From a virus (taxonomy: Duplodnaviria > Heunggongvirae > Uroviricota > Caudoviricetes): DNA of 40,878 bases. The notes under the pieces are model-generated. The model ran no database searches. It had not been told where the DNA came from and worked only from the letters and a program-made list of their open reading frames with translations. The stretch covers positions 1 to 40,878 of the IMG/VR virus record IMGVR_UViG_2713896799_000014; one strand, given 5' to 3'. The position numbers and the translations under genes were made by a program. Shown in pieces: positions 14,814-15,587 of the stretch (positions are counted from its first letter, which is position 1; each line of letters opens with the position of its first letter).

Positions 14814-15313
14814 TATTCGCTCCCGTTATCGCAAGGTTCCTTTCGCTGGAAGTAATTCCAACCGTTCCACTTCGCCAACTGATTACCGCTACCAACAGGC
14901 ATACGGTTTGGATAACCGGACTTACATTTAGCGGCTTTTGCTCTGTCCATTGCAGACAGTTTGACGAGTCGCTCTTTCCCGTATCTGGCAGTGGTTATAA
15001 GTTTTGCTGACGCTTCCAGCGCATAATCTGGAGCAATGCGGCAGGCAAGGTTGAAAATGACGGCATTGATAGCGTTATTTGATAAACCGTGCTCATCGCC
15101 CGGATCCGGAGCAACATCTGCATCAGCAAAAATGTAGCCAACGTTGATACCAGGTGACGCATCACCGCCAAGCCATTCAGCCATCATCATTTCAAGGTCG
15201 TTGACGCCGTCTTCCATAGACTGCGGTTCGACATCGGTTAACGTGGCATTTGATGCCACACCGAGCTTACGTAATGCCGCAAGAACTAAATCACCCTTCG
15301 TTGTCAGGTTCAT
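14813..15313 (-). CDS. Tail adaptor protein (P22 gp4-like)
   Basis: 166 aa from internal Met [20 protein letters not shown], aligning with P22 gp4 N-terminus; the longer SQ-repeat start was rejected. Confidence 0.8.
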
Positions 15314-15587
15314 CTGCTGCCGCCTTAGGTTTTCTACCAGGCTTTTTACGCTGTTTTTCTTCTGGCTCTGTCTCTGGCTCTGGCTCTGGCTCTGGCTCTG
15401 GCTCTGGCTCTGGCTCTGGCTCTGGCTCTGGCTCTGGCTCTGCAACATCCTTCAGAAGATCATCAGGATGTGCAAACCAGCCAGCATCCAGATATTCCTG
15501 AAGCTCTTCGGCTTTCACGATTTCAAAGTCGTATCCAACGCCTTTCCATTTCTTCATGTCGCCATGACGAAAGATCATGTGTGTCAT
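15291..15587 (-). CDS. Hypothetical acidic protein with (Glu-Pro)n repeat and basic C-terminal tail
   Basis: 98 aa from [10 protein letters not shown] with GGAGA 5 nt upstream, directly after the coat terminator; EP x11 encoded by the GGCTCT array. Confidence 0.5.
15361..15441. repeat. Hexanucleotide tandem repeat (GGCTCT)n, 11 perfect units plus degenerate flank
   Basis: Perfect 6-bp periodicity 15376-15441 read directly; gives EP, SQ, LW or GS dipeptide repeats depending on frame. Confidence 0.95.

Follow-up and report, generated by a model that had tools for sequence, protein, structure and literature searches.

Introduction

Between the coat protein gene and gene 4 of phage P22 lies a small gene, orf69, which is entered in the P22 record (BK000583) as 'unknown, putative'. 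Its family, phrog_1175, is already represented by hundreds of deposited copies named 'hypothetical protein', and in-frame microsatellites that encode Pro-rich spacers are likewise familiar. Here, we describe a member of this family in a stretch of viral DNA of 40,878 nucleotides (nt) (Caudoviricetes; IMG/VR record IMGVR_UViG_2713896799_000014, positions 1 to 40,878), referred to below as the window. The gene in question is a small open reading frame (ORF) of 98 codons plus stop on the minus strand (15291-15587), and it contains an array of hexamers that reads as a run of Glu-Pro (EP) dipeptides.

P22 orf69 (MKIAIYKPGGSIMVWGVMAQMKVIDSSELPEYVKDGWLDHPSKLLPVEADDVKPRKGRKPKAVSDADKD) is the closest described relative. 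It falls in the same PHROG end to end and likewise sits after the coat hairpin and ahead of gene 4. Its product has an N-terminal domain (N-domain; IYKPGG...DGWLDHP), an acidic linker and a basic tail (KPRKGRKPKA), and the gene overlaps gene 4 by 17 nt. In P22 and the Salmonella copies, however, the protein has a fixed length of 69 amino acids (aa) and a 7-residue, non-repetitive linker (PVEADDV) that contains no microsatellite, whereas the window copy, which is ~30% identical to P22 orf69, carries a hypervariable EP array of 13 units.

In a longer form of the protein (phrog_3769), the N-domain and the linker are separated by an inserted WDGH domain (PF25311). Members of this form are phage L orf186, epsilon34 gene 6, BTP1_006, ST104 ORF54 (annotated as similar to P22 orf69) and two E. 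coli loci in our set, L014 and L015. The four phage members share with the window gene the slot, a homologous N-domain of ~45 aa and the basic tail, and the two E. coli members have, in addition, the same EP repeat and tail in frame. What distinguishes all of them from the window gene is the extra domain of ~100 aa.

Three further systems offer points of comparison. Alternating Glu-Pro residues occur in the (EP)n-(KP)n spacer of TonB, where they are also followed by a basic Pro-rich segment, and in the EP repeats of trypanosome procyclin. Pro-rich segments of this type form extended rigid spacers that tolerate changes in length. A coding variable number tandem repeat (VNTR) whose copy number differs between isolates is known from another P22-like E. 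coli prophage, CUS-3, in the gene for NeuO; that unit is 7 nt long and its gain or loss switches the frame (phase variation), whereas the 6-nt unit in the window changes protein length only, and the two repeats differ in gene and position (PMC3046976). Finally, the order of coat gene, small ORF and gp4 in the window parallels that of E, FI (a 'DNA packaging chaperone') and FII in phage lambda.

In this study, we compared the window with related phages, prophages and metagenomic contigs. The data make it probable that the array is a coding microsatellite of a real late gene, an ortholog of P22 orf69 with an acidic spacer of variable length.

Results and Discussion

The small ORF belongs to the P22 orf69 family

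The product of the small ORF matched phrog_1175 with an E value of 2.5e-32, residues 1-96 aligning with positions 1-72 of the 72-position profile; P22 orf69 itself scored 4.5e-31, and 384 protein clusters matched at E <= 0.001. Synteny agreed with the profile match. In E. coli, Salmonella, Citrobacter, Kluyvera, Yersinia, Rahnella, Tatumella, Symbiopectobacterium and metagenomic loci, the small ORF was always located between the coat gene and gp4. A gp4 homolog followed directly in Citrobacter, Kluyvera, Buttiauxella, Yersinia and Rahnella, and homologs with as little as 37% identity, in metagenomic contigs, Tatumella and Symbiopectobacterium, were still flanked by a P22-type coat gene and a gp4 homolog. 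By profile and by position, then, the small ORF is the E. coli-lineage ortholog of P22 orf69. Family members have a three-part plan: an N-domain of ~45 aa with a beta-beta-alpha arrangement, a spacer, mostly Glu-Pro, in which every other residue is acidic, and a short C-terminal motif that is basic and rich in Gly and Pro.

Scans of the small ORF against NCBIfam and Pfam gave only low-complexity matches below threshold (TonB, DnaX linker, procyclin, adhesins), which we rejected as compositional. The TonB match (21 bits, cutoff 315) was confined to the Pro-rich segment, and the procyclin family Trypan_PARP reached 27 bits (cutoff 100); neither protein is homologous to the small ORF. Since a membrane anchor, a signal peptide and a TonB C-domain are all absent from the product, it would be a cytoplasmic phage protein. 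PADLOC defence models gave no matches for the window ORF, P22 orf69, BTP1_006 or Sf6 gp6.

Another small gene occupies an equivalent place in other phages. Sf6 gene 6 / HK620 hkbT (phrog_3251) encodes 61 aa and lies right after the annotated 't coat'; the Sf6 product terminates in SKRGRKAA, and its gene runs into the gp4 homolog, covering the AAGG Shine-Dalgarno (SD) sequence of the latter, just as the window ORF overlaps gp4. It belongs to a different PHROG and its hhalign probability was 3.8%, so that we regard it as a positional analog only and not as a member of the orf69 family.

With regard to the long form, the WDGH domain, stand-alone or fused, is widespread in phages of Firmicutes and Proteobacteria (Listeria A511 gp21 and Bacillus, Streptococcus, Klebsiella jumbo and Erwinia phages). 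It has conserved His and Asp-rich motifs (DGYHTFNELYAHR, WDGH) that are suggestive of a metal site. A sequence search of solved structures with the WDGH long form found nothing. In the two E. coli strains with long forms, SJC33 and 19KM1803, the NCBI Prokaryotic Genome Annotation Pipeline (PGAP) flags the gene as incomplete or as a pseudogene fragment (L014, 1811-2047; L015, 2117-2206). Each of these loci has a single open frame of ~200 aa that runs from MSVMIFQAGG through WDGH and the EP repeat to the basic tail and matches phrog_3769 end to end. The repeat or the overlap may have caused PGAP to call a pseudogene in error.

The Glu-Pro frame is the coding frame

Two frames are open across the array, and public records disagree about them. 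An earlier reading of the window, made from the letters alone (the sequence-only reading), had favored the EP frame, had named an SQ-repeat N-terminal extension of gp4 as the less likely alternative, and had proposed that the frame conserved through the repeat in relatives should be examined. We made this comparison in several ways.

First, we analyzed selection on the N-domain, i.e., the part of the ORF upstream of the repeat, in nine genera-level variants. The ratio of nonsynonymous to synonymous polymorphism (pN/pS) was 0.24 in the EP frame versus 1.48 and 1.97 in the other two, the value of 1.48 being that of the gp4 frame. Variable sites among 95 close loci were distributed over EP-frame codon positions 1, 2 and 3 as 8/1/17. 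The EP-frame ORF was open in 95 of 96 related loci; the sole disrupted copy, L073, has a premature stop after codon 13.

Second, we examined the arrays themselves. Whole-unit slippage yields multiples of 6 whether or not an array is coding, and point variants were therefore tallied instead, in arrays delimited by fixed anchors (389 hexamer units). Hexamer positions 1-2, the GA of the Glu or Asp codon, were altered in 1 of the 389 units, positions 3-6 all vary, and none of the units contained an EP-frame stop. At the protein level (118 protein clusters), position 1 of the dipeptide was Glu or Asp in 98% of cases and position 2 was Pro in 82%, the remainder being Ser, Gln, Thr or Leu. In the E. 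coli long forms L014 and L015, a protein of ~200 aa ends, in frame, with the EP repeat and tail.

On these grounds, i.e., the profile match, the open frame and purifying selection, we conclude that the EP frame of 15291-15587 is the coding frame of a real gene. The gene also has its own start signals. The sequence-only reading had placed the start right after the coat terminator with a well-spaced ribosome-binding site (RBS), and this was borne out: a hairpin follows the coat gene, and a GGAG SD sequence (15594-15597, minus strand) lies 6 nt before the ATG, with GGAG or GAGG at the same position elsewhere.

It could be argued that the array is a non-coding microsatellite spacer whose ORF stays open by chance because it grows and shrinks in 6-nt steps. 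The length pattern alone is indeed no argument, as slippage by whole units keeps multiples of 6 in translated and untranslated arrays alike. But the N-domain and basic tail are kept as protein, in one frame, across lineages that have little nucleotide identity and few or no repeats (P22, P0133, L107); point variants in the arrays preserve the acidic codon and never create an EP-frame stop; and the ORF combines a well-spaced SD with a PHROG match. We therefore give this explanation almost no credence.

An equally implausible alternative is that the repeat is a Ser-Gln extension at the N-terminus of gp4, starting from the ATG at 15448, and that the EP ORF is spurious. An ATG-initiated ORF of 211 aa (14813-15448) is open through the array in the window, and the records of phages IME10, Dewey and Louie annotate gp4 with such an extension. 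Yet the Pfam and PHROG profiles of gp4 begin at MNLTT, residue 47 of this long ORF, and leave the 44-codon upstream extension uncovered. The gp4 frame is also interrupted or different in relatives. In L007 and L008, GAGCTA (Glu-Leu) units read TAG in the gp4 frame inside the array; in L100, L101 and L104 (Citrobacter, Kluyvera, Enterobacteriaceae), gp4 is in the small ORF's own frame, behind its stop; in L103 and L107, the gp4 frame opens just one codon before MNLTTKGD; and the Yersinia unit GAGCCT (L105) gives (SL)n without an ATG. Arrays homogenised to GAACCA read (NQ)n in the gp4 frame. Moreover, an AAGG stands beside the ATG at 15448 with nearly no spacing, whereas gp4's own AAGG is found at -10 in all loci compared, and PGAP, APC_JM3.2 and Bas106 call the short gp4. 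Outside the gp4 profile and lacking a consistent frame in L007, L008, L100, L101 and L103-L105, the extension does not hold up across the family. The sequence-only reading had called the extension less likely; the relatives refute it.

We also considered a fusion of the small ORF and gp4 through programmed frameshifting or readthrough. It was rejected: the frame offset between the two genes is +1 in some lineages and 0 in others, and a slippery motif is absent from the array.

These data place the true gp4 start at the ATG at 15313 (MNLTTKGD), with a 23-nt overlap between gp4 and the small ORF. The resulting gene (14813-15313, minus strand, 501 nt) encodes a head-tail adaptor of 166 aa that matches Pfam P22_Tail-4 from MNLTT onward (E = 2e-58). 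The MNLTTKGD start is conserved in all lineages, and PGAP annotates 501-nt gp4 genes.

The hexamer array is hypervariable in copy number

As the sequence-only reading had stated, the window contains eleven perfect GGCTCT units on the plus strand (15376-15441), which we confirmed by reading the sequence and with Tandem Repeats Finder (TRF); one GTCTCT and one further GGCTCT precede them (15364-15375). TRF reported an array at 15361-15442 with period 6, 13.7 copies, 97% matches and a score of 157; no other array in the window exceeded 2.4 copies. When (GGCTCT)3 was searched for with at most one mismatch, the window gave 11 overlapping matches, every one at the array, and 100 dinucleotide-preserving shuffles gave none. 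In the codon register, which is one base off the GGCTCT register but describes the same array, the minus strand reads 11 x GAGCCA (15375-15440), GAGACA (15369-15374) and GAGCCA (15363-15368). These are codons 50-75 of the small ORF (15363-15440, minus strand), and the product therefore consists of the N-domain, (EP)11-ET-EP and a basic C-terminal tail of 23 aa, in agreement with the acidic linker and basic tail that had been read from the sequence. AlphaFold2 predicted no regular structure for the spacer (predicted local distance difference test, pLDDT, 52-72).

We surveyed copy number in 8 phages, 217 of 5426 complete E. coli genomes and 80 viral contigs. The shortest arrays had 1-2 units (74-76 aa) and the longest had 33 (138 aa, strain 98195). 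They were always whole numbers of 6-nt units, and neither the EP frame nor the gp4 frame was ever disturbed. The modes were 4, 5 and 2 units (118 usable protein clusters), which puts the 13 units of the window on the long side; its exact 98-aa allele was not found among ~15 billion catalogued proteins. EP spacers of 7-9 units were present in five other genera and Citrobacter L107 has no spacer, so that the family-wide range is 0-33 units. Among 26 pairs of loci with identical 597-nt flanks, 73% differed in copy number, and a single flank haplotype occurred with 9, 11, 15 and 18 units. The length of the array thus changes much faster than the flanks gather substitutions, and because copy number differs between loci with identical flanks, we class the array as a hypervariable coding VNTR. 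The suggestion of the sequence-only reading that linker length may vary between isolates while the frame is preserved, and that an alignment of related prophages would reveal it, was fully supported.

Most arrays are pure, and some have been homogenised for a synonymous variant unit: GAACCA x 10-12 in L019, L021 and L029 and GAGCCT x 8 in Yersinia L105. L007 and L008 have a 24-nt higher-order repeat (GAGTCA GAGCCA GAGCTA GAACCA) x 2.5, which encodes ESEPELEP. Pure and homogenised arrays and a higher-order repeat are, as sequence patterns, signatures of slippage and unequal exchange, and the latter two indicate concerted turnover of the array. The changes in length presumably arise through replication slippage.

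Tandem repeats are prone to collapse or expansion during assembly, and one locus, L011, shows a 1-nt length anomaly in its intergenic region. Could the copy-number differences be sequencing or assembly artefacts? We consider this very improbable. The arrays do not exceed 198 nt and lie inside read length, variation is alike in complete genomes, isolated phages and metagenomes, the differences are always whole units, and identical alleles recur in independent records, e.g., those of IME10 and L044.

A different proposal is that the array is an adaptive contingency or tuning locus, with spacer length acting as a molecular ruler and rapid switching under selection. Turnover of length is very fast relative to the flanks, the purity of arrays indicates recent expansion, an EP spacer is retained in at least six genera, and NeuO of CUS-3 provides a precedent for a repeat-tuned enzyme in a P22-like prophage (PMC3046976). 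Nevertheless, copy numbers form a broad, continuous distribution that has modes at 2 and 4-5 and gives no hint of preferred functional classes, homologs with no spacer or a non-repetitive one exist (L107, P22), and rapid change is the expected neutral behavior of pure hexamer arrays. Since the unit is 6 nt, the locus cannot work as an on/off switch, and we did not class it as phase-variable. Overall, an adaptive role for the length changes appears rather improbable. That the Salmonella form has a fixed length of 69 aa without a repeat, and that L107 lacks the linker, implies that the spacer is dispensable in length.

The N-terminal domain resembles a module of homing endonucleases

Codons 1-49 of the small ORF (15441-15587, minus strand) encode the folded N-domain, which consists of a beta-hairpin, an alpha-helix and a GW..HPD motif according to AlphaFold2 and alignments. 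The prediction was confident over residues 1-40 (pLDDT 83-92), with strands at 2-14 and 17-25 and a helix at 26-34. G9, G36, W37, H40 and P41 were invariant across the alignments, and the window copy has all five.

An exhaustive HMMER search with the 49-aa N-domain recovered the orf69 family and, in addition, proteins containing 3-7 tandem copies of a related module (library-wide E values of 5e-7 to 8e-4) with the consensus hWINxxGxxKxIxxxELQxYLDDGWxxG. These proteins are homing endonucleases, as they carry GIY-YIG, SegE-type or HNH nuclease domains together with NUMOD3 motifs. The module has no Pfam family of its own. When alignments of the N-domain and of the module were compared, hhalign gave a probability of 96% over strand 2, the helix and GW, and the independently built phrog_1175 profile matched the endonuclease P0129 at 2e-14. 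By profile comparison, then, the N-domain has relatives in GIY-YIG and HNH homing endonucleases, namely the copies of a module that recurs in their DNA-binding regions. The likeness covers the second strand, the helix and the GW motif; unlike the endonucleases, the window protein has a single copy of the module, a longer hairpin and no nuclease domain. Pfam and NCBIfam scans detected no nuclease catalytic domain in the 98-aa protein, and only the small module is held in common.

An E. coli member of the family, P0014 (93 aa), has a 13-residue tandem duplication (x 2) within the N-domain.

The basic tail contains the ribosome-binding site of gp4

The C-terminal tail comprises 23 codons (15294-15362, minus strand), with a basic core rich in Gly and Pro at residues 78-89. 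The motif [KR][KR]xG[RP][KP]PKA was kept in all lineages compared despite different codons, and K81, P87 and K88 were invariant in the alignments. Like the spacer, the tail is unstructured in the AlphaFold2 prediction. In the most distant ortholog, P0133, the tail reads KRRGRPPK, which is a near-canonical AT-hook.

The same region carries signals for the next gene. The AAGG SD of gp4 (15323-15326, minus strand) is part of the two codons for Lys88 and Ala89 (AAG GCG) in the small ORF. In each of the eight loci compared, and also in Sf6, it precedes the gp4 ATG by 9-12 nt. The last ~7 residues of the ORF are set by the overlap with gp4, and no lineage compared had more than 25 nt between the stop codon of the small ORF and the gp4 ATG. 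Translation of the small ORF may thus be coupled to initiation of gp4.

Possible functions

The homology of the N-domain to the homing-endonuclease module and the AT-hook-like tail are the basis for proposing, tentatively, that the protein binds nucleic acid. It would be a small, late-expressed and probably non-essential accessory factor acting around DNA packaging or head completion. Its spacer would be an extended, Pro-rich polyanionic rod or tether of the TonB type between two contact elements, the exact length of which would not be critical.

In position and architecture, such a factor would be analogous to lambda gpFI, a parallel that we regard as possible but doubtful. Besides its place, gpFI shares with the window protein a small size and an acidic flexible linker between functional ends. 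It has a folded C-terminal head-binding domain, whereas the window protein ends in a 10-residue basic motif. In lambda, gpFI is a non-virion accessory factor (PMC7889075).

A stronger version of this idea is that the orf69-family protein is an unrecognised packaging or head-completion factor, a gpFI analog that tethers DNA via two binding elements, with the EP rod serving as an evolvable ruler of ~0-20 nm that slippage retunes. In polyproline-II conformation a peptide extends by ~0.31 nm per residue; 0-33 units would accordingly span 0-20 nm, and the calculated net charge over this range is -3 to -36. We think this version improbable.

Several observations weigh against a nucleic-acid-binding or gpFI-like role. 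To our knowledge, no essential P22 gene has been mapped between genes 5 and 4; by the same token, the small gene is probably dispensable. With a net charge of -4.2, the N-domain is acidic, an unusual property in a DNA binder, and the stretch that it has in common with the endonuclease module amounts to only ~18-30 residues. The DNA-binding role of the module is itself deduced from its place in the endonucleases. The predicted structure had no match among solved structures, and its matches in BFVD (viral predicted structures) were only to uncharacterised proteins. The window tail (PGRKPK) lacks the RGRP core and had no match to Pfam AT_hook, so that it was not assigned to the AT-hooks and can be called AT-hook-like only; even the KRRGRPPK tails of P0133 and P0145 scored 13.5-14 bits against PF02178, below the cutoff of 17.4. 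Conservation of the tail is partly explained by the embedded gp4 RBS rather than by protein function. Homology to gpFI was rejected (hhalign probability 0.3%). Finally, the literature on the orf69 gene offers 'function unknown' only (PMC8022706).

An alternative is that the gene is real but mainly regulatory: it would be a short leader cistron at which translation resumes past the coat terminator and from which ribosomes reach the gp4 start, and its protein would have little or no function, with EP as neutral filler. In every lineage, the 3' end of the ORF overlaps the SD and ATG of gp4, even where the ORF belongs to another PHROG (Sf6 gene 6, phrog_3251). Spacer length is unconstrained (0-33 units), and the apparent lack of an essential P22 gene at this site fits as well. 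A leader peptide, however, would need neither purifying selection on an N-domain that has invariant residues across genera and a confident predicted fold, nor a basic motif upstream of the SD that is kept with different codons, nor an acidic register maintained in the spacer. For these reasons we consider a mere leader unlikely, and we continue to favor an ortholog of P22 orf69 whose product has a role of its own.

Annotation and uses of the locus

The practical value of these findings lies in annotation, as they provide the correct gene model where public records disagree. APC_JM3.2, Bas106 and PGAP have the EP-frame ORF together with a 166-aa gp4. In contrast, IME10 (L002, NC_019501 gene 4), Dewey (L003, CDS0008) and Louie (L004, CDS0008) show gp4 with a Ser-Gln extension of 29-35 residues and have no entry for the orf69 homolog; in its place, Dewey and Louie list an ORF of 45 aa that overlaps the 3' end of the coat gene. 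The gp4 starts in these three records appear to be mis-annotated.

The comparison also unites scattered 'hypothetical proteins', i.e., the E. coli EP-repeat ORFs, P22 orf69 and L orf186 / epsilon34 gene 6, as one syntenic late-gene family. The searchable literature contained no functional or descriptive report on orf69, orf186, hkbT, WDGH or a prophage hexanucleotide VNTR. It likewise held no description of the hypervariability of the locus, of the unification of the EP-repeat ORF with orf69 and the WDGH long form, of the relationship to the homing-endonuclease module, or of the gp4 RBS embedded in the tail.

Since copy number differs between prophages with identical flanks, the array could discriminate closely related P22-like prophages. 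It also inflates protein-cluster counts and breaks clustering at 90% identity. With respect to biology, an endonuclease-module-like domain, an AT-hook-like tail, a gpFI-like place and putative coupling to gp4 provide a testable lead for a P22 gene that has been without a function for decades; the thinking of the field will be unchanged unless the functional guess proves right.

Prophage context

The window contains a complete P22-like (Lederbergvirus-type) prophage integrated beside tRNA-Arg(CCU). This host tRNA gene (1009-1083, plus strand) marks the attachment site and adjoins the integrase gene (1209-2402), and the tailspike gene is at 2545-4503. A late operon on the minus strand includes genes for terminase, portal, scaffold, coat, gp4, gp10, needle and ejection proteins. 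The upstream neighbor of the small ORF is the coat (major capsid) gene (15632-16927, minus strand), whose product matched Pfam P22_CoatProtein (E = 7.8e-166, residues 1-427) and PHROG head families.

Directly 3' of the coat stop codon, a terminator scan and RNA folding identified a terminator-like hairpin (15599-15626, minus strand), GGGAGC-UUCG-GCUCCC, with a 9-bp stem, a UUCG loop and U6. With its GC-rich stem and U-tract, it is a predicted intrinsic terminator (t coat), corresponding to 't coat' in the Sf6 record and to the stem_loop annotated in P22, and the small ORF is the first cistron after it. The order of hairpin, U-tract, GGAG and ATG is kept in P22, Sf6, BTP1, Yersinia, Rahnella, Citrobacter, Buttiauxella, Tatumella and Symbiopectobacterium, while the stem sequences differ. 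Across genera (L110, L111, L108, L105, L106, L107, L103, L114 and L115) the hairpin has a GC stem, mostly a UUCG-type tetraloop, and a U-tract; the stem letters are GGGAGC/GCUCCC in the window and GGGGC/GCCCC elsewhere. Persistence of the hairpin and U-tract while the stem sequence varies is consistent with a conserved RNA element. The P22 record remarks on the parallel of this hairpin with HK97 and lambda.

In L003, L004, L011, L013 and L112 (1759-2280; Dewey, Louie, GPEC1446, ws5-3), a free-standing HNH endonuclease gene of 173 aa separates the scaffold gene from the coat gene and is encoded on the other strand. It looks like a mobile homing-endonuclease insertion within the head-gene cluster. 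The window does not have this insertion, and its scaffold gene abuts the coat gene at 16927. A link between the small ORF and this neighboring endonuclease of relatives was considered and dropped, because the HNH protein lacks the YLDDGW module and the insertion is absent from the window.

Two adjoining prophage tRNA genes, Thr(UGU) and Asn(GUU), lie upstream of the lysis and late region (24338-24413 and 24419-24493, minus strand). In the early region, TRF detected short 20-nt direct repeats of ~2 copies with 80-88% matches (27315-27355 and 30875-30912), which may be candidate operator- or iteron-like sites.

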